Positions 3,644-54,919 of a stretch of DNA of 60,801 bases are shown piece after piece. Origin of the DNA: a virus (taxonomy: Duplodnaviria > Caudoviricetes). The notes beneath the pieces are model-generated. The model saw only the letters and a program-made list of their open reading frames with translations. It did no database searches and was not told where the DNA came from. The position numbers and the translations under genes were made by a program. Within the stretch, counting starts at the first letter, position 1. Every line of letters begins with the position of its first letter. The stretch lies in the IMG/VR virus record IMGVR_UViG_3300009537_000009, positions 1 through 60,801 of that record; one strand, given 5' to 3'.

Positions 3644-4055
3644 TCCCACCGAAAAGTATGGATGGGTCTCATGGACAAGAGTGGCACATCAGTTATCTCG
3701 GGCGAGCAGGGAAGTTAGCTTATTTGGTAGGGCGAAATACGCCGGTGATGCAAACGCAAGAGCGAGATTCGAACAGTGGTTGGTGTCTGTGTACCAAGAG
3801 GAGGGGTTGTGTCGGGCGGTGATCGGGGAAATTATGGATCATGGGAAATGTCCCGTGTGCCATGGTGTGGCTTGGACAATAATAAAAGAGAAGAAGGTGG
3901 TGTGTCGTAGTTGTAAGGGTACGGGGCAGATGGTGTGGACCGAGAAAAAACTTAAGGGGGTGGCGGGTAAGTGGGACAAAGAGAAGTATATCAGGATTAG
4001 AACAAGGGTTTTGGATATTGAAACAGAATTATTCAGGGTGATGAGAAGAAGATAG
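3600..4055 (+). CDS. Zinc-finger protein, antitermination Q-like
   Basis: CPVCHG...CRSCKGTG DnaJ-type zinc finger; last gene of replication operon. Confidence 0.5.
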   Translation: MSVEDIRALSIQGIDPTEKYGWVSWTRVAHQLSRASREVSLFGRAKYAGDANARARFEQWLVSVYQEEGLCRAVIGEIMDHGKCPVCHGVAWTIIKEKKVVCRSCKGTGQMVWTEKKLKGVAGKWDKEKYIRIRTRVLDIETELFRVMRRR

Positions 4056-4080: not shown

Positions 4081-4496
4081 TACGGCAGGATGACTCTCAG
4101 CTTCCTCATCTTGGCGGAAGTGTGGAGAGTCTTTAGTGATTTGTTTCCATGGTCGGACATGATTTGAATATGCCAACCAACAAACTCCGCTCCATGGAGG
4201 GGTACCATTCTTCTATGAATGGAATATGTGAAGTGATGGGCCAGTTCGTGAGAGACGAGCCACGTATTTAGGGCCCAAGGAGGAAGGTGTATTTTGGAGT
4301 GGTAGAAATCGAAGAGTGCTGGCCCCCTCTCAGGGAACACTACGCCCTTGATATTCTTTATGCCATAAGTCGTACAAATTAAACGAGCATAGTCCACAAT
4401 CCCTTCCTTTCTCAGTTCCCTTGAGATTGGAGAGAGGAACTCATGTTCCCAATCATACACCCTTTTTCTCTGGAAATCTCTTGGAAACATAGGCAT
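4080..4496 (-). CDS. HExxH zinc metallopeptidase-like protein
   Basis: SHELAHH followed by HGAEF, SprT-like pattern. Confidence 0.7.
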   Translation of the reverse strand: MPMFPRDFQRKRVYDWEHEFLSPISRELRKEGIVDYARLICTTYGIKNIKGVVFPERGPALFDFYHSKIHLPPWALNTWLVSHELAHHFTYSIHRRMVPLHGAEFVGWHIQIMSDHGNKSLKTLHTSAKMRKLRVILP

Positions 4497-5169
4497 CGTG
4501 CTCCTTTTTTATACATGGTGTCTTGTGTACTACCTTGTGAAATGGATAGGAGACGTGGCCGCCTTTCGACCAGCACTCCCGGCATGTACCACAGTGACCT
4601 CCGTTTAGTTGAGACTGACATATAAATCCACCCGGCCATCTATCCCTGAACACTGATGATGTGCCTCCATACTTCTCACCGAGCCGCTTTATCCATCTGT
4701 TGGGCGCACCATCGACCATCACATAAGATACCCTGATGTTCAGGTTCTCCGGTATAGGTTGATGGTAGTCCTCCAAGATACGATACTCTCTGGTAGGAAG
4801 CCAGTGTTCGGTATCTGGAGTTTCTCTTGCCACTTCGCATATGTCAGACAACATCTTCTCACTTTGTAAATCCCCGCTATCGAACCAGCGAAAGAACTTA
4901 TCCCTTTTGACAAGAGTTATCATGGCCGGAACCCATAATGGTTCAGTCAACCACGCATGGTACCTGCGCTCCAAAGCGAGTTGCGTCCGGGGCATAAGAT
5001 AGCGCCCACCCTTGGCGAAACACACCCCCTTACTGCACACGGAACCTACCGCGTTCTCTAACTTGGAACCCATATTACAGCGGCTGGCAGGGATGTTCCA
5101 CGCCCTTCCTGGCATTTTGGATGGCTCTGATAGGCCGCCTGTGATTTCAACTGCTGTTTTGTGTAGCAT
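4453..5169 (-). CDS. Phage gp88-like Cys-rich protein
   Basis: GGLSEPSKMPG, C..CF, FRWFDSGD, WLPTRE, C-terminal CGTCRECW; probable start 5169. Confidence 0.7.
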   Translation of the reverse strand: MLHKTAVEITGGLSEPSKMPGRAWNIPASRCNMGSKLENAVGSVCSKGVCFAKGGRYLMPRTQLALERRYHAWLTEPLWVPAMITLVKRDKFFRWFDSGDLQSEKMLSDICEVARETPDTEHWLPTREYRILEDYHQPIPENLNIRVSYVMVDGAPNRWIKRLGEKYGGTSSVFRDRWPGGFICQSQLNGGHCGTCRECWSKGGHVSYPFHKVVHKTPCIKKEHDAYVSKRFPEKKGV

Positions 5170-5353
5170 TTGTACTCCACTTATGGTAGGCATGCATATC
5201 GTACCCACACGCAACGTGAGGCCCCTCATGGTCTGGTTCTCTGGTACATATCCAGAGTTGCTCCTCGCCATCACTGTCCACAATAATCCTCTCTCCGCAT
5301 GAATCCATACTATCGAAGTTACAATACTCACAACCAACGTCTTTATTGCTCAT
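5147..5353 (-). CDS. Small Cys/His-rich protein
   Basis: CEYC...CTREPDHEGPH. Confidence 0.55.
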   Translation of the reverse strand: MSNKDVGCEYCNFDSMDSCGERIIVDSDGEEQLWICTREPDHEGPHVACGYDMHAYHKWSTNATQNSS

Positions 5354-5399
5354 TTCATCGTACCTGTGTAAATGGGGACATCCCTGTCCCCTGGTTACA

Positions 5400-5624
5400 T
5401 TAAAGGGAGAAGTTTTTAATACCCATTCTGGATACTATAGTGTCTCCCTTGCGATTGTACATCTCTCCTGTGTTTGTATTAACACAGTAAAACTCATCCT
5501 GAGTTTTCTTTCTCATCCTGATACAGGGATGCATACCGAGCCAGAACCAGTCTCCCAGTTCTATGTCCCGAAGCTCCGCCTTTTCGAGTGGCTTCGAGAA
5601 AACAGCTATTGAGACCTGTTCCAT
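5400..5624 (-). CDS. Hypothetical protein
   Basis: Start overlaps stop of upstream gene. Confidence 0.55.
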   Translation of the reverse strand: MEQVSIAVFSKPLEKAELRDIELGDWFWLGMHPCIRMRKKTQDEFYCVNTNTGEMYNRKGDTIVSRMGIKNFSL

Positions 5625-6700
5625 TATGCAGCCCTCGCTATATCACGCCACTGAGACTGAGGAAGCTGGATGATAGTAGCACCCAATTGCTCCAGTTCAG
5701 AGGCACGGTCGTAGGTAATCTCATCGTGCTGAGCGAAGCGGGTTATTGCGTTGCTCAGTCCATACTTTGAGATATCTCCACCGGAGATAAGGTGCTTGAG
5801 CACACCGGAGGATTCATCCTTTGTAAGTTGCGATTTCTTCGCAACCATTTCAATGGACTTCACCGGGTCGCCGGTTATATCGCACTCAAGGGATGCTCGC
5901 ACCGAGTCACACAACTTGGTGAACACGTTACCACCAAGGGCACCGTTGACCACATCCTCCATCTTGGAGAAGATGGCCGCGTCTTCCAGGAGTTTTGTGC
6001 GGTCGGAGATAAGCTCCGCCACTATTCCGTCCACCTCGTGCTTCCGCCCCGTGTGGTGACGCCTTGAACCGGCATCCCTGAACACTGCGAGATTGGAACA
6101 GTGAATGGTATGTATTGCGGGGTACACACTCAACGCCCCCATACCAACCTCCGAGTTGGAAATAACCACACCGGGCTGGAGAACGTGGATTGGATTGTGA
6201 CCAACCCCCCACTCAACACCAGGGCGCTTAATTTCCTCCCTTATATCCGGCAGAGTAGCCTTGATATAGAGTTTGGTATCGGTGATATCACAGGACTGAA
6301 CCACAGCACCGCTCTTCATGAGAGCTGGCAAGACTACTTCCGCCAGATCATAGTTATCGAGACAACGATAACTGTTCGACAGAAATGCCCTCGCTACCCC
6401 GTCCATGGTACGCACCATCTGTGGTGATGGCTCATCATGAAGCCAATGGTTCACATTCTCCCTGAGAAGTTCGGGGGCTGAGTGGAGCATCCTGTCGTAG
6501 TACCGGGCATCAATGCCAAGATGTGAACCCAACTGACGATGGGCCACGTGGTTCATCTCGAACGAACCTTGCTGATCAAGAGACAACCTGCTTGAGGAAT
6601 CCATTTCCATCAGAGAAGTATCCCCGATGAAGTCTTGCTTAGATTCCCTCTGACGAGTCAACTCATCAGCCAGTTCGTTCAACGATTTGCCTTTCTTCAT
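5624..6700 (-). CDS. DUF932-like phage protein
   Basis: ARAFLSNSYRCLDN, ISNSEVGMG, CSNL, NAIT motifs. Confidence 0.8.
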   Translation of the reverse strand: MKKGKSLNELADELTRQRESKQDFIGDTSLMEMDSSSRLSLDQQGSFEMNHVAHRQLGSHLGIDARYYDRMLHSAPELLRENVNHWLHDEPSPQMVRTMDGVARAFLSNSYRCLDNYDLAEVVLPALMKSGAVVQSCDITDTKLYIKATLPDIREEIKRPGVEWGVGHNPIHVLQPGVVISNSEVGMGALSVYPAIHTIHCSNLAVFRDAGSRRHHTGRKHEVDGIVAELISDRTKLLEDAAIFSKMEDVVNGALGGNVFTKLCDSVRASLECDITGDPVKSIEMVAKKSQLTKDESSGVLKHLISGGDISKYGLSNAITRFAQHDEITYDRASELEQLGATIIQLPQSQWRDIARAA

Positions 6701-6776
6701 TTCAATTTACCTTTAGGTGAAGTGCGGTCACCTTCATACCGCACAATGTTTTCTACTTCCATGCAGCGGAGAACAA

Positions 6777-6995
6777 TCATCCTCTCTTGACTACTCGCGT
6801 CACCTGCTTGAAGTCGCCCCATATTGCGACGAGCTTTACAGACCGCTCTGAGATTATTACATCCCAAAAGTCCGGTTCGGACTGAGAGTGCATTCCATAC
6901 ATCATCTCCTGCACGTTCCCTTTTTCCTTGATCCACTTTTCATGATCTTCAAACAGATCAAGTGCATGGTTCTCATCTGTATATCTAATCTTCAT
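6777..6995 (-). CDS. Hypothetical protein
   Basis: GAGG RBS; preceded by palindrome 7015-7034. Confidence 0.6.
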   Translation of the reverse strand: MKIRYTDENHALDLFEDHEKWIKEKGNVQEMMYGMHSQSEPDFWDVIISERSVKLVAIWGDFKQVTRVVKRG

Positions 6996-13434: not shown

Positions 13435-13908
13435 ATGTATTTTATGGGGAAGGAAGTGGCTAGTAGACCAAATAAGTATAGGAGAGCCTGGAATCAGGCA
13501 ACCATCCCACTGGTAAGAGAGTTGATGGAGAATGGTGGTTCTATCGTGGAGGCATGTAGAATCATGGGAATTAGCAGGGTGACCCACTATCGGTGGATGA
13601 AATGCCCTACAAAAGCAGCATATAGCCGCGCTATGAGTGATCTTCTGGATGCTTCCGAGGCTTGGTGGATGAGGCAGGGGAGAGAGAATGTTGGAAACAG
13701 AAGTTTTAATACCCAGTTATTCAATCTCAATATGGTCAATAGGTTCAAGTGGAACTCTGCCCAATCAGAACAGACGCGGAACGTCTCCGAGAAGAGGAAG
13801 GTTACTGTCGATATTCGTAAAGCTATCGACGAGTCGGAGGAAAAAAATGAGGAGCAACACGGAGAGGTTATTCCTTTGTTGAAGAAAGTAGTTGACAATG
13901 GGGAATAG
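13435..13908 (+). CDS. Terminase small subunit (putative)
   Basis: HTH GGSIVEACRIMGISRVTHYRW, SEAWW..GR, MVNRFKW; first rightward late gene. Confidence 0.75.
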   Translation: MYFMGKEVASRPNKYRRAWNQATIPLVRELMENGGSIVEACRIMGISRVTHYRWMKCPTKAAYSRAMSDLLDASEAWWMRQGRENVGNRSFNTQLFNLNMVNRFKWNSAQSEQTRNVSEKRKVTVDIRKAIDESEEKNEEQHGEVIPLLKKVVDNGE

Positions 13909-13919
13909 TGTGGTATAAT
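13892..13919 (+). promoter_or_regulatory. Consensus sigma70 promoter of the RNA island
   Basis: TTGACA 13892-13897, 16-nt spacer, TGgTATAAT ending 13919. Confidence 0.9.
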
Positions 13920-13926
13920 GGTCCCA

Positions 13927-14047
13927 GGTTGCGTAGTTTAATGGCAAAACACTAAAAACACTATTTCTACCTATTGCTTTCCAAGCCGCTTGAGATGGTT
14001 TATCATTCGCTAAATGAGTGATGCGGGTTCGATTCCCGCCGCAACCG
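13927..14047 (+). ncRNA. tRNA-like RNA with ~70-nt expanded anticodon region; Y RNA (YrlA)-like candidate
   Basis: Acceptor GGTTGCG/CGCAACC, D arm, T arm GCGGG-TTCGATT-CCCGC, no CCA; inner helix ACTATTTC/GAGATGGT and bulged-C helix TGCTT/AAGC(C)G. Confidence 0.65.
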
Positions 14048-14056
14048 ACTTATTAC

Positions 14057-14131
14057 GGGGGATGGGCAGAGCACCCGGAGAATCCTTGCAAGATTCTAGC
14101 CTGATCAGTTTGAGTCTGATACCCTCCACCA
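14057..14131 (+). tRNA. tRNA-Ala(TGC)
   Basis: GAATC-CTTGCAA-GATTC, G3:U70, ACCA end. Confidence 0.85.
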
Positions 14132-14200
14132 GTTTAGCGTCCGAAGTGTGTAGGTTACCACCAAAGATATTGCTTGATACTCCTATGTACGATCACTTGA

Positions 14201-14276
14201 CGCTCTATCGTATAACGGCTATTATTCCGGACTCTTAATCCGTGTGATCCAGGTTCGAATCCTGGTGGGGCGACCA
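14201..14276 (+). tRNA. tRNA-Lys(CTT)
   Basis: CGGA-CTCTTAA-TCCG, TTCGAAT loop, CCA. Confidence 0.9.
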
Positions 14277-14290
14277 ATCATGGAGGAACT

Positions 14291-14572
14291 ATGCAGTACA
14301 GTTTTCTAATACTGCTTATAACATTTTTGATAATGTTAATCATTCTGATAGTGGATGATTGGCGGAAAACACTGCTTATAGAGGAATATAAGGTACTATC
14401 ACGAGTGTGGTCGCAAGAATCCTCACTGCTGGATGAGTACAGAAAGAAGTCGAGGGTATGGTTACATGGCGACTATCCTATTCTCAAGGATAGCGAGGTC
14501 ACCAAGGAAAGGCGAAGGGTTCTGCACAAGATGGCAGAAGATCGCAGGAAAGGAACTCATAATAGAGCGTAG
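14291..14572 (+). CDS. Membrane-anchored hypothetical protein
   Basis: GGAGG RBS, N-terminal hydrophobic helix; stop codon inside tRNA-Cys. Confidence 0.7.
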   Translation: MQYSFLILLITFLIMLIILIVDDWRKTLLIEEYKVLSRVWSQESSLLDEYRKKSRVWLHGDYPILKDSEVTKERRRVLHKMAEDRRKGTHNRA

Positions 14573-14637
14573 AGGTCGATTGGATAAACGGGTGTCTGCA
14601 AAACACTCACAAGCTGGTTCGATTCCAGTCTACGCTT
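14566..14637 (+). tRNA. tRNA-Cys(GCA)
   Basis: GGTGT-CTGCAAA-ACACT, U73; followed by CCG running into next tRNA. Confidence 0.85.
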
Positions 14638-14639
14638 CC

Positions 14640-14713
14640 GGTCTGTTAGTTTAGTGGTAAAACATTGGTCTGTCTAACCTTTGTCAAGGGTTCGATTCCC
14701 TTACAGATCGCCA
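14640..14713 (+). tRNA. tRNA-Asp(GTC)
   Basis: GGT-CTGTCTA-ACC, G73, CCA. Confidence 0.85.
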
Positions 14714-14719
14714 AATTAC

Positions 14720-14807
14720 GGGGGTGCTGGTATGCGCCTTATCAATTCTTGCTCTATTGAGCCGAAGATACAGGCTTATCTTGGTTCGACTCCAAGTACC
14801 CCCTCCT
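14720..14807 (+). tRNA. Atypical tRNA-like gene, undetermined anticodon (9-nt loop, long variable arm)
   Basis: Acceptor GGGGGTG/TACCCCC, T arm CTTGG-TTCGACT-CCAAG, TCAAT-TCTTGCTCT-ATTGA. Confidence 0.6.
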
Positions 14808-14811
14808 ATAT

Positions 14812-14901
14812 GGATTGTGCAAGTAAGTCAGCCTGGGGCTGAGAACGGCTGTAACCCGTTTCCTTATGGGCATGAGGTTCGATTCCTTCCACGATCCACC
14901 A
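14812..14901 (+). tRNA. tRNA-Tyr(GTA), atypical 8-bp acceptor
   Basis: AACGG-CTGTAAC-CCGTT; GGATTGTG/CACGATCC; A73, CCA. Confidence 0.8.
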
Positions 14902-14973
14902 CCCCTTGTGTTGGGGAAACAACCACCACTCCTAATGGGGGTATTACAGGTTCGAATCCTGTCGAGGGGTCCA
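14902..14973 (+). tRNA. tRNA-Arg(CCT)
   Basis: CCA-CTCCTAA-TGG; CCCCTTG/CGAGGGG; CCA. Confidence 0.8.
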
Positions 14974-14975
14974 AT

Positions 14976-15158
14976 ATGGAAAACAATTCAGGGTACGTCA
15001 AGGTTCTTGAAGAGAGGGCGGCAGAAGCCTCCATGTTCAAGAAAGAGTTGGAGTTTTTGAGATTTTTCTATGAAAGGTCGGATTTCAAGATGGCGATCAT
15101 GGAAGAGTATACCGCTCTAGGACACAAGGTTCCCTATGAATATGATGAGCCTAGCTGA
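14976..15158 (+). CDS. Small hypothetical protein (60 aa)
   Basis: ATG 14976; SD-like GAGGGG lies in tRNA-Arg 3' end; stop inside tRNA-Ile. Confidence 0.6.
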   Translation: MENNSGYVKVLEERAAEASMFKKELEFLRFFYERSDFKMAIMEEYTALGHKVPYEYDEPS

Positions 15159-15222
15159 CTGATAGTCAGAGTGCGCCTGATAAGCGTACTGAAGCAAGGT
15201 TTGATTCCTTGAGGCTCAACCA
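15146..15222 (+). tRNA. tRNA-Ile(GAT)
   Basis: TGCGC-CTGATAA-GCGTA; TGAGCCT/AGGCTCA; ACCA. Confidence 0.85.
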
Positions 15223-15223
15223 A

Positions 15224-15300
15224 GCCGTGGTGGTGGAATTGGGATACACGCCAGTCTTAGAAACTGGTTCTTGAGAGTTCGAGTCTCTCCTGCGGTACCA
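15224..15300 (+). tRNA. tRNA-Leu(TAG), short variable arm
   Basis: CCAGT-CTTAGAA-ACTGG; 5-nt variable region; ACCA. Confidence 0.9.
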
Positions 15301-15305
15301 AATTA

Positions 15306-15383
15306 GTGTCCCTGACGGGAATTGGAATACCTGCCGGGCTTAAAACCCGGTGTTTCTCAGTTCGAATCTGAGTGCGAGTACCA
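15306..15383 (+). tRNA. tRNA-Leu(TAA), short variable arm, poorly paired acceptor (possible pseudogene)
   Basis: CCGGG-CTTAAAA-CCCGG and intact T arm; GTGTCCC vs TGCGAGT pair poorly. Confidence 0.65.
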
Positions 15384-15397
15384 TTCATTGGTGATTT

Positions 15398-15781
15398 GTG
15401 AGACATACAAAGAAGGATTTTGAGATAGACTGGTTTTCGGGTAGTGGTGCTGGCGGACAACATAGAAACAAACACCAGAACTGTTGCCGGATTACTCACA
15501 AGCAAACCGGGTTGAGGGCGCAGTCCACGAGTCACAGGGAAAGGTGGAAGAACCAGCGCGACGCATTCAACCGTTTAGCTGGGATGATAATTGCATCTGA
15601 TGATAAAAAGGAAAGAAGGGATTCCAATCATATTGTCAGAACATACAACTATGTTCGGGGCATTGCCACTGACGGGGTTATCGAAAAACCCTTGCATCCC
15701 GTAATAAACGGTGATATAATGGAGTTTATTGTTAACTCCTTATCTGGCAATAGACCAGATAGATTCACGGGCAGAATGTAA
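15398..15781 (+). CDS. Truncated class I peptide chain release factor-like protein (GGQ peptidyl-tRNA hydrolase domain)
   Basis: SGSGAGGQHRNK...CRITHKQTG...VRTYNY...NGDIMEFI, matching the C-terminal half of RF1/RF2. Confidence 0.9.
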   Translation: MRHTKKDFEIDWFSGSGAGGQHRNKHQNCCRITHKQTGLRAQSTSHRERWKNQRDAFNRLAGMIIASDDKKERRDSNHIVRTYNYVRGIATDGVIEKPLHPVINGDIMEFIVNSLSGNRPDRFTGRM

Positions 15782-15785
15782 CAAT

Positions 15786-15861
15786 GTATGCATAGCTTAA
15801 CCGGCAAAGCCCAAGGATGTGACCCTTGAAGATTCAGGTTCGAAGCCTGATGTATACCCCA
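15786..15861 (+). tRNA. tRNA-His(GTG), no encoded G-1
   Basis: CAAGG-ATGTGAC-CCTTG; C73; base -1 is T. Confidence 0.85.
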
Positions 15862-15862
15862 A

Positions 15863-15938
15863 GCAGTCTAGGCCGATCCGGCGATGGTTCTAGTCTTCCA
15901 AACTAGTGAGGTGGGTTCGACTCCCACAGGCTGCTCCA
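15863..15938 (+). tRNA. tRNA-Gly(TCC)
   Basis: CTAGT-CTTCCAA-ACTAG; U73, CCA. Confidence 0.9.
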
Positions 15939-15942
15939 ATTT

Positions 15943-16013
15943 CCCCCTGCTAATGGATAGAGGCAGGTCTTCTAAACCGGTCCTTGTGGGTTCGAATCCC
16001 TCCTGGGGGTCCA
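15943..16013 (+). tRNA. tRNA-Arg(TCT)
   Basis: GGT-CTTCTAA-ACC; compact D arm; CCA. Confidence 0.75.
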
Positions 16014-16028
16014 TATACAGAGAAAAGA

Positions 16029-16718
16029 ATGGGATTACTAATACCGCCATCTGATGATCCAATGGATACTCAGTGGACTGACTACGAAGCATATATTCCG
16101 TGGTGGAAGGATACTCCTCCCATGGCGAGACATGGCCTCATTACAGGGGAAACACCCAAACATATAGGGCTTGGTTTCAGGAAAACCAACGATCCGAGTG
16201 AACCCTATGTTGAGAGGCTTTTGAATATTCGTGGATTAAATACAGACGGAACCTCGCCCCGTTTTATTGCGGAGGATAATGAGAGTCTGGCAAAGTTCGG
16301 AGCAACAACCCGAATCGAACCCGATAACGCATATGTGATAGGGTCTGCGTATAAAGAAGGTGAGACATATATGCACGAAGCGGCTCATTTTTTTTCGGGG
16401 GACGACAAGGTGGTCGAGAGATTGGAAGATATCGGGATGACCACTACCAAGGCCAAGTCGGGGGAAACGCTGTACAAATGGCCCGGAAAGGATGTATTCA
16501 TACCCGAAGCAGATACAGAACATATGTTGATTGATCTGGAAACTTTTCTCAGAAATGACAATACCCAAAACGCTATGCAAGCTTTTGAAAGGCTTATTGA
16601 ACTTTCCGGTAAACACGACATCAAACTATCGAAAGTGGTGGATGTGTACCACGACATAGTGGGCCTTCTATATGAGATATATCCGGACCTAAAAGAATTG
16701 TCGATGGATGGCCGGTAG
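16029..16718 (+). CDS. Hypothetical protein with HExxH motif
   Basis: MHEAAHF; probable start 16029; stop inside tRNA-Ile(TAT). Confidence 0.7.
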   Translation: MGLLIPPSDDPMDTQWTDYEAYIPWWKDTPPMARHGLITGETPKHIGLGFRKTNDPSEPYVERLLNIRGLNTDGTSPRFIAEDNESLAKFGATTRIEPDNAYVIGSAYKEGETYMHEAAHFFSGDDKVVERLEDIGMTTTKAKSGETLYKWPGKDVFIPEADTEHMLIDLETFLRNDNTQNAMQAFERLIELSGKHDIKLSKVVDVYHDIVGLLYEIYPDLKELSMDGR

Positions 16719-16775
16719 TCATAAGGCAGCTTATATCTGTCTTGGAGCAGGGTTCAACTCCCTGATCGACGACCA
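16699..16775 (+). tRNA. tRNA-Ile(TAT)
   Basis: GGCAG-CTTATAT-CTGTC; TGTCGAT/ATCGACG; ACCA. Confidence 0.85.
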
Positions 16776-16790
16776 TATGTGGAGAGGACG

Positions 16791-16949
16791 ATGAAAGAAC
16801 TGATACAAGAGAGTGAGGAGGGGTTGAGATTCGTACCCCTCGAAGATTTGCTTGAGGCCCTTCATATGCTTAGAGATGACTTCATGCAAATGAAACGCGG
16901 GTACCATGTTACCATAGAGAAATGGATCAAGGAGCTTGATGATGTCTGA
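16791..16949 (+). CDS. Small hypothetical protein (52 aa)
   Basis: GGAGAGG RBS, MKELIQESEEG... Confidence 0.55.
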   Translation: MKELIQESEEGLRFVPLEDLLEALHMLRDDFMQMKRGYHVTIEKWIKELDDV

Positions 16950-17154
16950 GAGGCCACCTGTACTTTGTGGTATCGATGGGGTGTATCATCCCGCTTTTTA
17001 CCGATGTAATCAATTTCGGTTTCGGGGATACGGGATTACGATGATATGTTGCGCCGTATGCAAGGAAGGCTCCCATATCGAGGATGATACAGAAAACTCA
17101 GCTCGTAGGCCGGATATCGAGGCGGCATTCTTACAAAATGCCAGTAGAGGGTGA
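16942..17154 (+). CDS. Small Cys-rich protein
   Basis: AGGAG RBS; CCAVC; 3' end overlaps tRNA-Val. Confidence 0.5.
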   Translation: MSERPPVLCGIDGVYHPAFYRCNQFRFRGYGITMICCAVCKEGSHIEDDTENSARRPDIEAAFLQNASRG

Positions 17155-17174
17155 GATTCCTTCACGAGCTACCA
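17100..17174 (+). tRNA. tRNA-Val(TAC)
   Basis: GCATT-CTTACAA-AATGC; AGCTCGT/ACGAGCT; atypical T loop TGAGATT. Confidence 0.85.
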
Positions 17175-17180
17175 AATAAT

Positions 17181-17259
17181 GGGGATGAGATGGCTCGACC
17201 GATCTTAAAACCTTACGGAAAGGATCGGGACCAGGGATCAAAACCCTGCATCTCCACCA
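17181..17259 (+). ncRNA. Minimal tmRNA-like RNA: tRNA-like domain only, no mRNA-like domain
   Basis: GGGGATG/CATCTCC with G3:U70 and A73-CCA; stemless D loop AGATGGCTCGA; 8-bp P2-like CCGATCTT/AGGATCGG; GAC then CAGGG-ATCAAAA-CCCTG. Confidence 0.8.
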
Positions 17260-17264
17260 TATTT

Positions 17265-17336
17265 TCCCTGTCTGCGGACTCAGTGTGACGGCTACGAACC
17301 GAAATCAGGTCAGTTCAACTCTGGCACAGGGAACCA
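17265..17336 (+). tRNA. tRNA-Arg(ACG)
   Basis: CGG-CTACGAA-CCG; TCCCTGT/ACAGGGA; ACCA. Confidence 0.8.
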
Positions 17337-17337
17337 A

Positions 17338-17411
17338 AGGCCGATAGTTCAACGGCAGAACACTGGGCTTTGAACCCGGTAGTCCTGGTTCGAATCCAGG
17401 TTGGCCTTCCA
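17338..17411 (+). tRNA. tRNA-Gln(TTG)
   Basis: CTGGG-CTTTGAA-CCCGG; canonical arms. Confidence 0.92.
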
Positions 17412-17417
17412 TACATA

Positions 17418-17504
17418 GCTGGCTTGGCAGAGCGGACGAATGCAGGGGTTTTGTAAGCCTCAGTCGAAAGACCATCGTGGGTTCGAATCCTACAGTTAGC
17501 TCCA
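17418..17504 (+). tRNA. tRNA-Thr(TGT) with long variable arm
   Basis: GGGGT-TTTGTAA-GCCTC; GTC-GAAA-GAC arm; G1-C72, C2-G71. Confidence 0.8.
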
Positions 17505-17518
17505 ACCTGAGAGAGAAG

Positions 17519-18166
17519 ATGAGAAAGGGAATATTACTTGTAGTGTTTTTGCTGGGTGGTTGCGGTGTGATGACCGATCAGGGCAGGGTGTCCAAAGAGG
17601 TTTATCGGGCCGAAACGGCACAAAAGCTGTTCGACTCCGCCCAAAAAGCTGATGATGCTTTCGCAAAGGAAAACCCCGTGAGCGGAGTACCGTCATACTG
17701 TAACGGTTCTGTAACAGATGCCCAAGCCGTGGTTTGCGGGATGGCTCAAGCGAACGCTAATCTCTCAGTAGCCCTTGTAAACGCAAACAGGAAAGCCTCT
17801 GTCGCTTATGCTTCACAGATTCTATCTACACAGGCACAAGAAAGAATTGCATTCAAGGACCGTCTGATGAATTTCTTCGGTATCGTGTATTCGACCGAGA
17901 GGGGCTCAAGGAGCCGTTCTACGGGTGATGGGACCAGGGTGGTCATCAATGGGCCAAACGCCCGAGGTAGCGGAGAAGGAGGGGCTTCTGCTGGCAGTCA
18001 GGACGTAAGCCTGAATATCGGTAATGCAAATCAGGTATCTTCGGATGGAAGGACTGGTTTTGCCAACAGGAATAGTACGGTTGACAACCACGACCAATCC
18101 GAGGTTGTGTTCGAACCTGTCCTCGAACCGGTGGTTGACATACCCGAACTACCTGTGATAGAATAA
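17519..18166 (+). CDS. Lipoprotein
   Basis: MRKGILLVVFLLGGC lipobox; probable start 17519. Confidence 0.75.
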   Translation: MRKGILLVVFLLGGCGVMTDQGRVSKEVYRAETAQKLFDSAQKADDAFAKENPVSGVPSYCNGSVTDAQAVVCGMAQANANLSVALVNANRKASVAYASQILSTQAQERIAFKDRLMNFFGIVYSTERGSRSRSTGDGTRVVINGPNARGSGEGGASAGSQDVSLNIGNANQVSSDGRTGFANRNSTVDNHDQSEVVFEPVLEPVVDIPELPVIE

Positions 18167-18173
18167 AGAGTTT

Positions 18174-18248
18174 GGACTTCTGGTGTAGGTGGCCGCACGA
18201 CAGTTTGAAGCACTGTAGGATCAGGCTCGATTCCTGGGGGGTCCACCA
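18174..18248 (+). tRNA. tRNA-Phe(GAA)
   Basis: ACAGT-TTGAAGC-ACTGT; ACCA. Confidence 0.85.
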
Positions 18249-18250
18249 AA

Positions 18251-18325
18251 GCACCGTAAGGCGAATGGCGAGCCAGTAGTCCTTCAAACTATTGTGAGTG
18301 GGTTCGATCCCCACACGGTGTACCA
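18251..18325 (+). tRNA. tRNA-Glu(TTC), C at position 33
   Basis: GTAGT-CCTTCAA-ACTAT; GCACCGT/ACGGTGT; ACCA. Confidence 0.75.
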
Positions 18326-18326
18326 C

Positions 18327-18404
18327 TGTGGGATAGCAATCCGGGTGATCGCAGACGGCTGTTAACCGTCAAGGAGATGAGTTCGAGTCTCATTCCCACA
18401 GCCA
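18327..18404 (+). tRNA. tRNA-Asn(GTT)
   Basis: GACGG-CTGTTAA-CCGTC; G73, CCA. Confidence 0.9.
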
Positions 18405-18409
18405 TTTCA

Positions 18410-18494
18410 GGAAGGTAGGGTGCTGGGCACAAAAACGGTTTGAACCCGTTCCCACTCTTTGGGGTGATCGTTCGATTCGGATTACCTTCCGCCA
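18410..18494 (+). tRNA. tRNA-Ser(TGA), 8/4-type fold
   Basis: AACGG-TTTGAAC-CCGTT; GGAAGGTA/TACCTTCC; long variable arm; G73. Confidence 0.85.
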
Positions 18495-18495
18495 C

Positions 18496-18581
18496 AGTAG
18501 GTTGAGTGCTGGGCACACGACAGTTTGCTAAACTGCCCCACTCCGAAGGGGGTGACAGTTCGATTCTGTAACCTACTGCCA
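18496..18581 (+). tRNA. tRNA-Ser(GCT), 8/4 fold
   Basis: AGTAGGTT/AACCTACT 8 bp, T stem ACAG/CTGT 4 bp; loop TTGCTAA; G73. Confidence 0.85.
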
Positions 18582-18584
18582 TAT

Positions 18585-18659
18585 CAGAGACGACGAGGCT
18601 GGGTCATCTCCGTCCCTTGGAAGGACTGAAGCGCAGTTCGATTCTGCGGTCTCTGACCA
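18585..18659 (+). tRNA. tRNA-Pro(TGG)
   Basis: GTCC-CTTGGAA-GGAC; C1-G72, A73. Confidence 0.85.
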
Positions 18660-18660
18660 G

Positions 18661-18735
18661 AGGGGTGAAACATTTAAGGTGATGTCTCGGTCTTTTAAAC
18701 CGGAAAACAGGGTTCAAGTCCCTGCGCCCCCACCA
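18661..18735 (+). tRNA. tRNA-Lys(TTT)
   Basis: TCGGT-CTTTTAA-ACCGG; ACCA. Confidence 0.85.
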
Positions 18736-18739
18736 GTCA

Positions 18740-18748
18740 TGGTATAAT
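18740..18748 (+). promoter_or_regulatory. Extended -10 promoter
   Basis: TGGTATAAT immediately upstream of the large structured region. Confidence 0.65.
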
Positions 18749-18752
18749 AGAG

Positions 18753-19139
18753 ATAGGCACTCCCTGCCTTAAAATTATGAGCGGCTCACCGTCCGTGTCG
18801 GGAAGAAAAGCGGTTTTAATGAGCGGGTCTTTGACCTCGGACCAGTCCTCCAGAGCGCAAGCAAGTTAGGCGGGGGGCGATAAACAGGGCTATACTGTAA
18901 CACAGTCAGTGACTACGACCAGCTTCGGCTGCTTGGCCTTACGGCCTTGAAGGTAGTGCAGCGTCTCGCGGTACGATAACACGCACCTGATATACGCTCA
19001 CCTTGTGACGGTAACTAGACAACCATAAAGAGTATTCTCTCCCTGTGGTGGAATTCTCGGATCATATGCTGGACTAATATCCCGGCCTATAAACCCCGAC
19101 CAGTCTGGTTACAGTGAAGGAGGTCCGAGCTATGCCTAT
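18753..19139 (+). ncRNA. Large structured non-coding RNA, unclassified (~385 nt)
   Basis: No long ORF; nested long-range helices 18753-59/19133-39, 18836-43/19122-29, 18894-901/19108-15; cUUCGg hairpin 18920-18931. Confidence 0.7.
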
Positions 19140-19170
19140 TTGTGTTGTATTTTTACAACAGGGGGAGTTG

Positions 19171-19353
19171 ATGCAGTGTAAGTGCGGTGGAAGCACGGTT
19201 GACCGTGTGTCTGTCCGAAAGAAGGGGAAGTACAAACTTCTCTATGTCCATTGTGTCGAGTGTACCAGGGTAGGTAATTGGTTGTACCTTGAAGATAACA
19301 AGTTGGCTGCCTCCGGTGAGGATGCCAGAAAGAAATATAGCGCGGTGGTGTAA
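19171..19353 (+). CDS. Small zinc-ribbon protein
   Basis: GGGAG RBS; MQCKCGG...CVEC; stop inside tRNA-Met. Confidence 0.65.
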   Translation: MQCKCGGSTVDRVSVRKKGKYKLLYVHCVECTRVGNWLYLEDNKLAASGEDARKKYSAVV

Positions 19354-19413
19354 AGGCTAACATCTTGGACTCATATTCCTCGGCTGAGAGTTCGATTCTC
19401 TCCTGCGCTACCA
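19339..19413 (+). tRNA. tRNA-Met(CAT) (elongator Met or Ile2 not resolved)
   Basis: GGA-CTCATAT-TCC; AGCGCGG/CTGCGCT; ACCA. Confidence 0.8.
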
Positions 19414-19414
19414 T

Positions 19415-19491
19415 GAGCCGTCATGTTCCAAGGCTGGCGATGAAGTCTCCAAAACTCTATGTGTGGGGTTCGATTCCCTAGCGGCTCGCCA
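19415..19491 (+). tRNA. tRNA-Trp(CCA)
   Basis: AGT-CTCCAAA-ACT; G73, CCA. Confidence 0.8.
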
Positions 19492-19509
19492 ATTACTAAA
19501 GGGAATTAC

Positions 19510-20181
19510 ATGAATGTAATCTTATGTTCCGGAGTGATGCGTTCCGGATCGACGTGGTGTTTTAACGTATTAAGAGGTTTGTGTGGTCTGGTCGCTGAGT
19601 GTCTCTCTAAACCGTTCTACGCCTCTTACCTGGAGGGGGATGCTTTAGACAAGTTCCTCCTTTCCGATGCCGCTTTAAGGCCTGGGGTGAGTGTATTCAA
19701 GACGCACCTCATAGGGCCGCGAGCTGCCCACTTAGCCAGAAGCGGCATCATCAAGAATATTTGTACGTTGCGAGACCCCAGGGACTGCGTAGCCTCTCGT
19801 CAGGAGTTTAAGTCGGAAAGCCTGTCCGACTCCATCGGGCTTGTTAGGGCATCATATACTACCGCGATGGGACTCGATGATGCTGCGCTGTTCCTGGACT
19901 TTGAGAATATTAAAACATCCCCGGTATCTGTCATTCTCGATATGATGGAGTATTTGGGGATAGATTTCGAGAGTGCTGATGAGGTGGCTGGCATTCTCTC
20001 GGAAGAGTTTTCCTTGGAAAAAATGAAGAAGATGGAACCGAATAATGGAATTGATCCGCTAACGGAAATTCACGAGAACCATTTTCACGGGGGAGAAAGC
20101 GGGAAGGGCGTATCTCTTGGTCTGGATAAGAAGCTGGAAGACCTTCTTGACTTTTATCGAAAGGTGACAAATGACTCCTAA
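19510..20181 (+). CDS. Sulfotransferase-domain protein
   Basis: GVMRSGSTW (5'-PAPS loop), KTH, RDPRD..AS (3'-PB); probable start 19510. Confidence 0.8.
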   Translation: MNVILCSGVMRSGSTWCFNVLRGLCGLVAECLSKPFYASYLEGDALDKFLLSDAALRPGVSVFKTHLIGPRAAHLARSGIIKNICTLRDPRDCVASRQEFKSESLSDSIGLVRASYTTAMGLDDAALFLDFENIKTSPVSVILDMMEYLGIDFESADEVAGILSEEFSLEKMKKMEPNNGIDPLTEIHENHFHGGESGKGVSLGLDKKLEDLLDFYRKVTNDS

Positions 20182-38722: not shown

Positions 38723-39163
38723 GTGATACGAAAGGCAACATATAAAGATATTAAGGGGTTGGTTGATTTATGTAAGGAGGCGCATTCGAAGTCCGTCAAC
38801 GAGCAATTGCCTGTTGACAACAAGACCCTCATCAAGTCCTTGCAGGTTATCGTGCTATCCAGAGAACATTGTTGTTATGTGACTGAAGTGGATGGAAGGA
38901 TAGTTGGTGCTATTATCGGTGTTACCCACCAGTCATGGTTTAGCAAGAAGAAACAGGCGTCAGACTTATTTTTCTACACATCAGAGAGGGGGCGCGGTAG
39001 TGGTCCGTTTTTGTTTAGACGGTTTGTAACGTGGGTTAGAAAAGAGTCTGGAGCCAAGCAGATAATACTAAGCACCGACTCCGGGATTGATTCAGAAAGA
39101 ACATCTGAACTTTATACCAGGATGGGTTGTAAGAAAATTGGTGATGTATTCCATAGGGGTTAA
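38723..39163 (+). CDS. GNAT acetyltransferase-like protein
   Basis: IRKAT..D, RGRGSG, LY.RMG. Confidence 0.75.
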   Translation: MIRKATYKDIKGLVDLCKEAHSKSVNEQLPVDNKTLIKSLQVIVLSREHCCYVTEVDGRIVGAIIGVTHQSWFSKKKQASDLFFYTSERGRGSGPFLFRRFVTWVRKESGAKQIILSTDSGIDSERTSELYTRMGCKKIGDVFHRG

Positions 39164-40333: not shown

Positions 40334-41697
40334 TGGGATTAGATAGAAATGTTCTTGCCCAAGGTCTGTTGAATATGGGCACTACACTCGGGCAGTCCGT
40401 GATCGCAAACTCTGCTCTTGAGAAAGAGATTGCGATGAAGGAAAGACTGGGTATTTTGGACGCACAGACAAGGCTGGAGCAAGAGAGACTGGTAACTTCT
40501 CGTTCCGAGAATGTTGCAAATATACAGGGTGGATGGAACTTGAAGTCTCAACAAGAGGCTAGTGCTGGAAGCTTGGCTTCAACCAAGGCTGCTGCTGCTG
40601 GAACCCTTGCTGTTCAACAGGAGATGGGTCGTACAGAGATTGAGTTGAAGGGTATGGACAACTCTGGCCTGATGGAAAGATTAAAGCAGTCCGGGCTCAA
40701 CGCGGTTAGGTTGCAGGAAGTTATCAATGGCGGAGACGTTAATCAGATCAGAGAAAACGCAAAGGCCGGTATTGATAGTATGCGTGAAGAGGTAAACCTT
40801 GCTGACAAGCGAGCGAGGCAGGAACATAAAAGGAATCTGGAGTTTACGGCAAATACCGCTGTAGCGAGTGCTGCTGCTGCCATGGATAAGACTCTTACAG
40901 ATACAGCGACCCAACTTACATCAACGATTGAAGAGATGTTGAAGGCTATTGCTGATGCCCGTAGAGGCTTGGACGAAGTAGTGGAGACCCGTGTTGTAGA
41001 CGGCAAGGAAGTAAATGTCACTTATGGTATGTTCTTATCGGAGATGATTGAAGAACGAAGGCAAGTGATGGGTCTTATGATGGGTACGGCAAGATCATCT
41101 TATGAGACCGGACTTGAGGAGTCGTTCGAGAAGAAGGAGTCTGGAGCGGAGATGACTCCAACAGAGAATAAACAGGCTAAAGCTTACGAGCCTATCTTTT
41201 TCAAGAGGCAGTCTGTAGATGCCCAACAGTGGGTTAAGGAGGGAGGAGAGCTTTCCTCCAAGAGGTTGGCCAACTGGAAGAGGGCTGGCTTGAATCCAGA
41301 GGCTATCTTCTCCGCAAGGGATAAGGTCGTCAAGAGTCAGGCTCCGGAGGAAATTGTCAATAAACCACCGGTTAATGATAAACCAAGAAACAAACCACCA
41401 ACTGTTGCTCTGCCTGATCCTGTAAAAACAGAACTGCCCGATATGGCTGGTCTTCTTTACCCAAAAGAAAAGCCAAGGCAGCCCATGCAACCATATAGTA
41501 ACGACTCCAGGGTAGGAGGCTTGCTATCACAGGATAGTGGAGCGCAACAAAGAGAAATAAAGGGAGCGATTTCAAGAATACAGGCTCTTGGTACTGGTCC
41601 GTTGGATGGGGCAAAGGAAAAACAAAGGGAGATTTTGATGGCATTTTTGAGAAACAAGGGCATGACTGACGATCAAATTGCACACATGGTGAAATAA
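40333..41697 (+). CDS. Putative internal virion protein
   Basis: Coiled-coil-rich; precedes giant gene. Confidence 0.6.
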   Translation: MGLDRNVLAQGLLNMGTTLGQSVIANSALEKEIAMKERLGILDAQTRLEQERLVTSRSENVANIQGGWNLKSQQEASAGSLASTKAAAAGTLAVQQEMGRTEIELKGMDNSGLMERLKQSGLNAVRLQEVINGGDVNQIRENAKAGIDSMREEVNLADKRARQEHKRNLEFTANTAVASAAAAMDKTLTDTATQLTSTIEEMLKAIADARRGLDEVVETRVVDGKEVNVTYGMFLSEMIEERRQVMGLMMGTARSSYETGLEESFEKKESGAEMTPTENKQAKAYEPIFFKRQSVDAQQWVKEGGELSSKRLANWKRAGLNPEAIFSARDKVVKSQAPEEIVNKPPVNDKPRNKPPTVALPDPVKTELPDMAGLLYPKEKPRQPMQPYSNDSRVGGLLSQDSGAQQREIKGAISRIQALGTGPLDGAKEKQREILMAFLRNKGMTDDQIAHMVK

Positions 41698-44600
41698 TGG
41701 GTATCAATTACCTGCTTGGAGATACACCAGACTCTGCAAAACCTACCAGAGTCTATCCTTCGTCTACTCCGACAAGTGATTCCGATTTTCTCACTGGCAT
41801 AAATCGCGGAATCAGGCAGACTGCTGCGCTCGGCTATGCCGGTTCGGCTATTGTAGGGGGTGGGCTGAGGGCTATTGGTCTTGAGTCCGCTGGAGCCTCT
41901 CTTGAGAAGTTTGGTATCGAGGGATACCATGACTACATGGAGTCTGCCCAGGATTACAAGGCATCCGTTTCATGGACGGATGTATGGAATTCCGACGGGA
42001 GCTTTCTTGATTGGGCGCAGGGGGTACTGGGGGAACAACTACCCAATATGGCTCTGATGATAGGATCGGGCGGATTGGGGGCCGCGCTCGGTAAGAAGAT
42101 TGTGAGTAAGTATGCTCTCGAAAAGATGGCATCATCCGAACTTATGGAAGCGGCAATTAAAAAGGGCGTGACATGGGGTGCCGGAACAGGCGTCTTCGCT
42201 GCATCCGAAATACTGAACACAGGGGAGATATACGGCTCCATCCTGGAGGAGACTGGACAGGCGAGACCTGGAGAGTCTTTATTGTTTGGTACCGTTGCTG
42301 CTTCTTTGGATGCGTTCACCCCGGTGAGAATCCTAAAGGGGTGGGGATACGGGGCTGATTTCACAGGATTCCTATCGAAAACAATAGCATCCCAACCGTT
42401 ATACGGAAGGGCGCTTGCGGCTGGAATAGGAGGCATGATTCGAGAGGGTACTACGGAGGGAATGCAAGCCCTGATAGAAGCGATGGCTGTTAACTTCGTA
42501 AAACAAACCCCAATGCTTGATTTCTCCGATGATCAATGGACTGAGTTCAAGGAATCTATTGCTGCCGGAGCACTGATGGGTGGTGTATCTGTCGTTTCTC
42601 CAACCCCAGGTGTTCTGCAAGCCACAGACGATGAAGCTGACCTTACCGGAGGAGAAGCCCCGCCTTCAGAAGAGTGGTCTATCGAAAGAACCAACGAAAT
42701 TCTTAACAACTCCGATCCTGAAGCCGGTACTAAAGCACTCGAAGAACTTGGACTGTTTAGGGATATAGGTCTTGGGGAGACGAATGTGATCGGCAGGGTA
42801 TCCGGGAAGGATATTATTCCAACTCCTGACTTTGATTCCATCGGAGATGTGATCCCAGCCAAAAGAACTCTGCCTAAAACAGAGCCAGCCACTAAAACTA
42901 CTCCACTTCAGTTCTCTCCGGTCTCACAAGAAGGGGCACTCGCAAAGGACTTGGTGGGACATCTTCTGTCTGCTAATGAATTAGAATCCAACACTCTACA
43001 GGAAATGAATGCGCCAGTAATGGACGCAATGAAGGCTTCCGATATCAGGCTGACTCCGAAGGGCAGGTTGGATGTTCCCCTGAAGGATAAATATCCCGCT
43101 ATTCCAGAGTATTATGATCGTATGCCGAATGAGGATCGCATACCAATCATTAATATGCTTCTAAGGGAGGAGGGGGAGAAGCTGAAGACTTCCTTCAAGA
43201 CACCCGCGCATTTGCAGGGGCTTCCCACAGAAGAGAAGATTGCAAAGACGAAGAAAGAGTTCGAGTTAGCTTTGCTCAAGAGAGTGGATAAGCGTCTAGC
43301 GGCGGCAGTTGGTAAGACAAGTCCTGTCCAAGAAACCCTATTGGATGCCATCAAAACATCCAGACCTACCACAGTACTTCGTGGCCCGGTGGTGAGGGAG
43401 TTCTCCGAGCCTATCAAGAGAACCCTGAAGAAATCACAGAAGAAAAAACTGAAGAAGTCACAAGAGACTTCTGTGGTTACTCCCACACCTTCCGTTCCGC
43501 TGACTACTATGGGAGAAGGGAGGGCCCCAGTCAATCTGATAGGACAGGAGTCAAGGCCTGGAGTTAAGGTTAAGGGTGAGGTTGTTCCGGAAATCAAGAG
43601 GACAACAACAAAGACATTCTTTAACGCAATGACAGGTAAGCTTGAGACGGTAGAAGGAAAGCAGACACCAGACCTGTCTCAACAGGATGAGTACAACAAG
43701 CTTAACACTGCCTACAAATTTGTGGACAAGCTCGACCGGGACTTGAAGTCTATTATAGGCCGTACAGGGTCGAAACGTCCGGACACTGTTAGTGTTGATA
43801 AGGACGGCAACCCTATTACCGTACCATTGCAGACAACGGATGACGACTTCAAAACCTTCACTCCCGAAGAGGATGCGGAAACAGTGAGGCAGGTTTGGAG
43901 GGATACTCTGGACATTCTAGTGTCATCCGGTCATATGACCAAGGAAGAAGTTGGTGATATGAAGCTTGACCCGACTGTGTTCACCTCTGACTTCTATGAT
44001 ATAAACAAACCTGTTGACTTCCAAGCCAGACCACCTCAAGAAAGAGTTCGTCTACAGAAAACAGGAGAGGCATTAGAGACAATGCGCCGCAACATACTGT
44101 TGGGTGTAAGGTCTGTTGGGCTTGGGTGGAGAACGGTAGAAGTCCGCCCTGGTGAATCAAAGCAGACTGTCGATTCTGTTCTGTCTAAGAATGAAAGGTT
44201 TTATGTGGATGGAAAAATCAAACAGGAGTTTGAATTAGTCACTGCTGATAACACAGACCCGTTCTCTGATGTACGGGTTGTTAGAAAGAAAGATCAGGCC
44301 GTGATGGCGATTGTACCATGGGAGGATGCGAGAATATACCGCTCCTACCACAGGACATTCGAGAACAAGAACTTCATTGTGATGAGGGAGGCTCTTGGTC
44401 GGGGTGATGAACCTTGGGTTGTGCTGGACAAAAGAAGAGATAATGCTGTCGTCGAGAAGTTATATCCATATACAGAAGAGGAGTGGCTCTTCCTTAGAAA
44501 GACGGGCATACTTGATGATGTATACAAGGGAAGGGGATTACCTAAGCATAGTAGACAACGCGAGCCTGTATTCGCTCTTCTTGAGGCATATTCTGATATA

Positions 44601-54796: not shown

Positions 54797-54919
54797 GTGA
54801 ATTAAAGGGTTGTAATGTCAAGGTGCGTGAATGGAGTGTACTCAAACACAAGGTTGATAATCCACTCACATCGGACATTACGAAACGTATTATACATCGA
54901 ATCCATGGCGGTGTCAAGC

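Follow-up and report, generated by a model that had tools for sequence, protein, structure and literature searches.

A gap in the tRNA array of an uncultured phage probably carries the core of a non-coding module shared by small Rep-less enterobacterial plasmids

RNA-primed replication that is independent of a Rep protein has been described, in the literature that we searched and in the available text of its main sources, for two families only, ColE1 and the marine RNA-based (MRB) origins (PMC3035462, PMC8683028). ColE1-type plasmids are outlined in PMC8683028 as having an RNAII of ~550 nt, an RNAI of ~100 nt and Rop. The MRB origins of Vibrionaceae, a family reported to be restricted to that group, are given in the available sections of Le Roux et al. 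(2011, PMC3035462) as ~490 bp long, with neither a Rep gene nor ORFs, with a terminator hairpin between A and T runs and with two partly complementary RNAs; as far as that account goes, they indicate that RNA-only origins arose more than once. VBR1 was considered as a further comparison and set aside, being protein-dependent according to the available part of PMC12753305. Here we describe a non-coding gap in the tRNA array of a phage, the core of which is very probably homologous, to judge from profile and covariance searches, to the core of a module found in small Rep-less plasmids. The initial annotation of this locus had proposed an unclassified, highly structured RNA; it was right that a real, conserved non-coding element lies here, the middle 195 nt of which has relatives, and wrong on the fold and the kin of that element.

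The window analysed, 60,801 bases, is the whole of IMG/VR virus record IMGVR_UViG_3300009537_000009, which has a completeness rating of 100%. Genes were recognised for the terminase, portal (SU10-type), major head and tail-fibre proteins, for a primase-helicase (507-2537), for a Rad52-like protein and for a ribonucleotide reductase. Residues 106-315 of a 3162-aa ORF at 41697-51185 (+) show a weak match to the N4-type virion RNA polymerase phrog_2206 (E 3.4e-8). The tRNA array lies on the + strand at 13927-19413, with 21 ARAGORN calls and 13 Rfam tRNA matches. At its upstream end stands a 121-nt Rfam tRNA (13927-14047, +; 48 bits) with ~50 extra nt in the anticodon/variable region and no ARAGORN call, which begins 8 nt past a perfect TTGACA-16-TATAAT promoter (13892-13919). 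A tRNA-like gene at 19414-19488 (+), also without an ARAGORN call, reaches 30.9 bits with the tRNA-Sec model (gathering score 47), has the anticodon loop CUCCAAA (read as CCA) and overlaps the start, at 19459, of a 240-aa ORF (19459-20178, +) located just upstream of the terminase; this ORF has a sulfotransferase domain (PF00685, E 1.6e-11) and no relative in viral contigs. The element itself sits between tRNA-Lys and a small ORF, which is followed by tRNA-Met, in an ORF-free gap of 396 nt (18736-19131) bounded by these features:

18661-18735, + strand: tRNA-Lys(UUU), immediately upstream of the gap, with no terminator in between
18740-18748, + strand: extended -10 promoter-like box TGGTATAAT, a perfect extended -10 in sequence
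18755-18769, no strand assigned: hairpin AGGCA-CUCCC-UGCCU at the presumed 5′ end, the minus-strand reading of which is a weak terminator-like site (18769-18755)
19117-19353, + strand: small ORF with Shine-Dalgarno sequence AAGGAGGT at 19117-24, ATG at 19132, 73 codons and a CxC...CxxC pattern

The longest ORFs touching 18736-19131 are of 42 aa (-), 30 aa (+), 30 aa (-) and 53 aa (-), besides a 79-aa frame that leaves at the 3′ end, and stop codons of mixed types occur in all six frames of the gap, which bears out the earlier claim that it has no long ORF. Recoding was ruled out because the stop codon types are mixed, and a decayed gene was rejected as well, since the six frames translated with X at stops had no PHROG match and a best Pfam match that was not significant (E 0.24). 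The GC content of the gap is 0.516, against mostly 0.45-0.50 across the 2-kb windows of the genome; no paralogue of the gap was found within the record, and its direct repeats are short and at chance level. That the element has a promoter of its own, as first proposed, is plausible: besides the copy of TGGTATAAT at 18740-48, the same nonamer is found at 13911-19, just before the first tRNA of the array, and the motif TGNTATAAT occurs six times in the record against 2.06 expected, a count reached by 1 of 100 shuffles, four of the six occurrences lying on the + strand at 13.4-18.8 kb. No -35 box is recognisable for the box at 18740-48, only a weaker, overlapping 9-of-12 site at 18748-18775. Transcription would start near 18755. 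The final 15 nt of the small ORF overlap tRNA-Met, and its 60-aa version matches phrog_29406 (E 4.5e-4); no homologue of this ORF was found, either with it as an anchor in viral contigs or in a further homologue search.

Relatives of the gap were sought among phages, plasmids and bacterial genomes. Permissive blastn (E ≤ 10) against 50,697 phage records gave a single match: 18959-18992 is 91% identical over 34 nt (E 3e-3) to part of a gap that carries no annotation in Pantoea phage G19. At a threshold of 1e-5 there was no match. Pairwise alignment of the phage gap with G19 showed two collinear blocks, A and B, and a 20-nt pattern from Block B was used to collect relatives. Among viral contigs the pattern found one near-identical relative of G19 on a 73-kb IMG/VR contig; in 185,579 species genomes it occurred at 16 places, 12 with long homology over ~480 nt and four by chance. 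A profile HMM of the module (16 members, nhmmer) matched the record once, at 18957-18992, in Block B (E 5.4e-7). Covariance model R1, built on a 141-position core from 13 sequences and run on both strands of the record, gave 18806-19000 (+) as its sole match (22.7 bits, E 3.1e-5, model positions 1-141), with no match at E ≤ 10 in 640,172 bases of control sequence that included the four chance-pattern loci and ColE1. A second covariance model, R2, covers the 3′ (right) end of the module. The features that these searches define, or bear on, are as follows:

18806-19000, + strand: 195-nt core, the probable homologue of the central region of the module, where conservation is highest (R1)
18824-18828, + strand: 5′ strand of the core long-range helix, pairing with 18985-18989; five of six model pairs kept, one as G-U
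18879-18893, + strand: Block A, GATAAACAGGGCTAT; GATAAACAGG is invariant in 13/13 aligned family members
18962-18992, + strand: Block B, CGTCTCGCGGTACGATAACACGCACCTGATA, identified by blastn to G19, the profile HMM and the pair table
19001-19131, + strand: remainder of the gap towards its 3′ end, for which no relative was detected (R2; nhmmer finds Block B only)
19143-19160, no strand assigned: hairpin TGTTGTA-TTTT-TACAACA followed by GGGGG, resembling the right-end hairpin of the module by eye, with model R2 unsupportive

Divergence between the phage copy and the module family is block-wise. The phage keeps 29 of 31 positions of Block B and 10 of 10 of GATAAACAGG, between flanks that are unalignable, and the blocks kept are the invariant blocks of the family, which argues for selection over uniform decay. 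Within the Block B hairpin (18968-72/18979-84) a G18970-C18982 pair replaces, in compensatory fashion, the U-A pair of 11 main-group rows, and the two differences between the phage and G19 versions of Block B lie on opposite sides of this small stem. Between blocks A and B the phage copy has two hairpins and the module family one. The left ~190 nt of the module have no counterpart in the phage: the R1 alignment starts at 18806, 51 nt past the presumed start, and nhmmer finds no left part. The left-end features missing in the phage are an A-run with a terminator hairpin, a TGTCAC block (minus-strand GTGACA) and the ATCTTAGCA block (TAAGAT), all of which are present in 16/16 rows of the module alignment. 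The right-end hairpin and the invariant GGGGCATTAGG are not recovered either, the best R2 match in the record being elsewhere (38806-38853, E 1.3), and with filters off R2 gave nothing above 2.4 bits at the 3′ end of the gap; the right-end resemblance seen by eye (hairpin and G run) was set aside as unsupported by this model. In these alignments the phage copy is the core only, both module ends being missing or unrecognisable.

By its distribution across records, the non-coding module (~480 nt; about 450-500 nt) is the shared backbone of Rep-less enterobacterial plasmids of 1.7-6 kb, being the part common to them, and it is unannotated in their records. Matches to it occur in 1105 of 72,556 plasmid records, and in complete E. 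coli genomes 30 of 31 module places are on plasmids (2.0-5.7 kb among the matches listed). Rop is present, and no Rep is annotated, in plasmid relatives that we looked at: Rop is the only annotated CDS of pEA1.7 from E. amylovora (1711 bp), p88COLEC-6 from E. coli (2136 bp) has Rop and one hypothetical CDS, and Rop is also present in pRHB16-C08_8. A further E. coli plasmid, pMB9272_7 (1718 bp), has two small hypothetical CDS, of which the 134-aa one is without a Pfam match, and no annotated Rep. The distant members are Col3M-typed qnrD plasmids of 2.7-4 kb; in the available part of PMC6764390, a review table labels one qnrD1 plasmid ‘ColE1-type’, which is not necessarily a carrier of the module. 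Several hairpins of the module covary. On its minus strand a promoter-like pair, GTGACA and TAAGAT separated by 17 nt, is conserved by eye, and together with the left terminator it looks like a short antisense RNA. Among the matches listed, Klebsiella plasmids of 54-339 kb hold only a 70-nt piece (86%) of the right-end hairpin region, which may be a separate, reusable signal. No Rfam family matches the module in plasmids, and the papers searched contain nothing on its replication mechanism, on experiments with it or on its presence in phages.

Outside small plasmids the module was found in two further settings. Pantoea phage G19 (PV483189.1, 64254-71091) has the full module amid a SpoVT/AbrB-MazF toxin-antitoxin pair, UmuD-like and partition-like genes, and looks like a phage able to live as a plasmid; a fragment of a single-subunit RNA polymerase is also near. 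Just to the right of the G19 module there is, by eye, a GGCA/UGCC hairpin resembling the one at 18755-18769. An occurrence in a phage is unusual, since one of 50,697 phage records has the full module. The second setting is bacterial genomes. In Alcaligenaceae (contigs of 67-555 kb; loci L175 at 4356-6914, L166, L170 and L180) a tRNA and a tyrosine integrase immediately precede the module and a metallophosphoesterase follows it, and the order in Corticimicrobacter is tRNA, integrase, module; from this gene order, these copies are inside an integrated element.

Compared with the pEA1.7/Col3M-type module, the phage gap is alike in Block A, Block B, the core helix and the Block B hairpin, in being ORF-free and in size (396 nt against ~450-500 nt), and differs in its place within a tRNA array and in that no plasmid-maintenance genes were detected in the phage. 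Likeness to ColE1/pMB1 is one of arrangement: the plasmid relatives have no annotated Rep and in some cases Rop, the non-coding unit is of ~0.5 kb, and the module occupies the RNAII/ori slot, because its left end adjoins DNA with homology to positions 1308-1803 of ColE1, a stretch that lies downstream of ori and includes rop. Neither the family HMM nor R1 matches ColE1, and Rfam RNAI (RF00106) has no match in the phage record or the plasmid relatives, with ColE1 as a positive control at 73.8 bits. ‘ColE1-like’ is thus an analogy from context, there being no RNAII similarity and no RNAI match. The phage record differs further in having no Rop, which was looked for, and no evident antisense promoter. 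To the MRB origins, as described in the available text of PMC3035462, the module would be comparable by description, these being origins of ~490 bp with neither Rep nor ORFs, a terminator hairpin between A and T runs and two partly complementary RNAs.

The fold originally proposed fares less well than the element. All of the motifs named in the initial annotation are in the sequence:

18753-59/19133-39, + strand: ATAGGCA/TGCCTAT (helix 1)
18836-43/19122-29, + strand: CTCGGACC/GGTCCGAG (helix 2)
18894-901/19108-15, + strand: ACTGTAAC/GTTACAGT (helix 3)
18797-802/19095-100, + strand: GTCGGG/CCCGAC (crossing pair)
18920-31 and 18935-46, + strand: UUCG and UUAC hairpins

The sequences of a further hairpin, GAGTATTC/GAATTCTC, are present too, but pair at only seven of eight positions. 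The description of the region as highly structured does not stand, its folding energy being within the range of shuffled sequences (z -0.5 to -1.5). The minimum free energy of 18740-19150 is -137.1 kcal/mol (z -1.50; 8 of 100 shuffles as stable), 18753-19139 has z -0.54, a stability reached by 27 of 100 shuffles, the opposite strand z -1.06 and the inner domain z -1.24. Perfect helices of at least 7 bp number three in 387 nt, where 2000 shuffles have a mean of 3.29 (P(≥3) 0.63). A nested triple of long-range helices arises in 0.95% of shuffles, and one with its 3′ strands within 32 nt in 0.05%, a statistic picked after the data had been seen. Imposing all three helices costs 9.1 kcal/mol, and helices 1, 2 and 3 have pair probabilities of ~0.65-1.0, 0.05 and 0, respectively; of the three nested helices and pseudoknot proposed, helix 1 is thus favoured by the energy model, but the rest is without energetic support and the whole without comparative support. 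In alignment with the module family, CTCGGACC (the 5′ strand of helix 2) falls on a conserved motif, CCCGGAC, that is part of a palindromic run there, CCGGACTCCGG. Helices 1 and 2 have 3′ strands that overlap the strong ribosome-binding site AAGGAGGT (19117-24) and the ATG at 19132 of the small ORF.

The reading of the gap that we favour, tentatively, is that it is a transcribed element of plasmid-type RNA-primed replication. It would carry a diverged, end-trimmed core of a plasmid-type non-coding replication module, the full version of which, in Rep-less plasmids, would be an RNA-primed origin with the logic of ColE1 without its sequence. That the module is most likely an RNA-primed origin we infer from context, because it is the only shared backbone of these Rep-less plasmids and lies in the ColE1 RNAII/ori slot. 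The phage would transcribe the core on the + strand, both from the extended -10 promoter that precedes it and in transcripts that run on from the tRNA array, and the folded transcript, or its R-loop, may start or assist replication of the phage DNA by host polymerases. As to the active strand, the phage promoter and one G-U pair favour an RNA from the + strand, whereas synteny with ColE1 favours the minus strand for the plasmids. Consistent with a part in replication are the primase-helicase and the result that neither a family A nor a family B DNA polymerase, both looked for, was found in a record rated 100% complete. Against it stand the cumulative GC skew of the record, which turns near 12 kb and not at 18.8 kb, the missing ends, the lack of similarity to ColE1, the ordinary fold energy, the absence of Rop and the absence of the element from related phage loci.

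A rather unlikely alternative, although the likeliest of the four considered, is that recombination brought part of such a module, from a plasmid or an island, into the hypervariable tRNA array, where it would now be transcribed passively, as spacer and as 5′ leader of the small ORF, and do nothing of its own. Syntenic homologues were sought in viral contigs with four anchors (the large terminase subunit TerL, the portal, the 240-aa ORF and the small ORF), and a TerL alignment served in both viral and metagenome contigs. The terminase has thousands of relatives at ~65% identity; its clade is very abundant in marine metagenomes, with 4049 proteins at E ≤ 1e-20 among 8000 candidates scored. In 161 related loci (1.18 Mb, viral and metagenome contigs) there was no tRNA and no nhmmer match to the gap. 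It follows that the element does not belong to the core of this phage clade and that the array of 21 tRNAs is specific to this phage. The nearest relative among phages, whose TerL is 79% identical, differs in the DNA upstream of its terminase, and a search with a tRNA-Lys 3′ pattern for syntenic homologues returned 0. This isolated occurrence of the array, the loss of both module ends from recognition and a folding energy like that of shuffled DNA all suit a remnant; the block-wise divergence that spares the invariant blocks of the family, the compensation of the single change within the Block B hairpin and the retention of a 396-nt, GC-richer non-coding gap in a compact genome do not.

It is also possible, but unlikely, that the gap encodes a stand-alone structured RNA that does not prime, whether a decoy or antisense RNA directed against resident plasmids or islands that bear the module, or a leader that masks the ribosome-binding site of the small ORF. 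An own promoter would fit such an RNA, as would the pairing of its 5′ end with the start-codon region through helix 1, the anti-SD-like CUCCCUG that occurs twice in the gap, and the core helix and hairpin kept on the + strand with a G-U and a compensatory pair. Covariation, however, is available for the core only, the small ORF is without homologues, and there is no energetic signal.

Less probable again is a signal at the level of DNA, in which hairpins in single-stranded DNA would direct primase like the G4-type ‘G sites’ of plasmids. G-U and A-C combinations number 36 and 43 in the shared, covarying helices of the module, without strand bias, as expected of DNA hairpins, and the phage has a primase-helicase. 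R1 nevertheless misses the complementary-strand origin of phage G4 (~3900-4000), its best score in that genome being 7.4 bits elsewhere, and if the module did no more than provide a priming signal, the Rep-less plasmids would have no leading-strand origin.

The catalogued large RNAs were the kin first suggested for the element, GOLLD and ROOL having been said in the initial annotation often to adjoin tRNA genes. They resemble it in being non-coding and phage-borne, but the gap element is far smaller, has no Rfam match and has its kin among plasmid backbones. Rfam 15, scanned in full over the whole record at gathering score, returned tRNAs only; at E ≤ 10 nothing relevant was found on 751 and 431 nt around the gap, and the gap alone matched no family at E ≤ 1, the sole match listed at E ≤ 10 being Mahella-1 (11.9 bits, E 7.9). 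GOLLD and ROOL gave no match at either the gathering score or E ≤ 10. The accompanying statement that the element could not be assigned holds for Rfam, and GOLLD, ROOL, RNase P, tmRNA, group I/II introns and Y RNA are unsupported because these scans gave nothing relevant. The only notable match at E ≤ 10, to tmRNA_permuted (E 0.029; 21.6 bits, where the gathering score is 47), was rejected, as it is built on the T arm and CCA of tRNA-Lys and one 7-nt complement, and ARAGORN calls no tmRNA. A Y RNA in the gap was rejected as well: there is no Rfam match, and GGUCCGAG is on the 3′ strand, whereas the Ro-binding stem has GGUCCGA on the 5′ strand. A Ro60 orthologue is encoded at 53258-54796 (-), with TROVE and vWA_Ro60 domains (Pfam E 1.7e-59 and 7.3e-28), and a Y-RNA-like stem with GUCCGA...CUUGAC adjoins its gene at 54803-54882 (-), scoring 24.7 bits with Rfam Y_RNA (sub-threshold; gathering score 38) and 27.8 bits with nematode sbRNA. 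That the gap is a divergent member of one of these families is scarcely credible: the weak tmRNA_permuted match and the argument that a phage encoding Ro60 therefore needs a Y RNA are outweighed by a match made of tRNA-Lys parts, by the gap reaching E ≤ 1 in no Rfam family and by the better Y-RNA candidate beside the Ro60 gene.

Returning to the favoured reading, a plasmid-type RNA-primed replication element, a bolder version of it can be stated, which we regard as speculative and on the doubtful side. The module would represent a lineage of RNA-only origins that is not yet catalogued, the third after ColE1 and MRB, and would move among tiny plasmids, integrase islands and phages; its core of ~190 nt would be an autonomous functional RNA domain, placed under a strong promoter in the tRNA array of this phage. 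There it would serve either to prime phage replication by host enzymes or to take over, or jam, the replication control of resident plasmids and islands with the same module.

On a practical level, the history of this locus illustrates that a call of ‘structured RNA’ made from hand-picked helices can be right in pointing to non-coding DNA that bears function and wrong on the fold. If the favoured reading is true, a plasmid module of more than 1000 records, absent from Rfam and mostly unannotated, would gain a defined core and a testable role, and RNA-only origins would be seen to cross between plasmids, integrative islands and phages. It would also provide a candidate replication start for an uncultured phage without a recognisable DNA polymerase.
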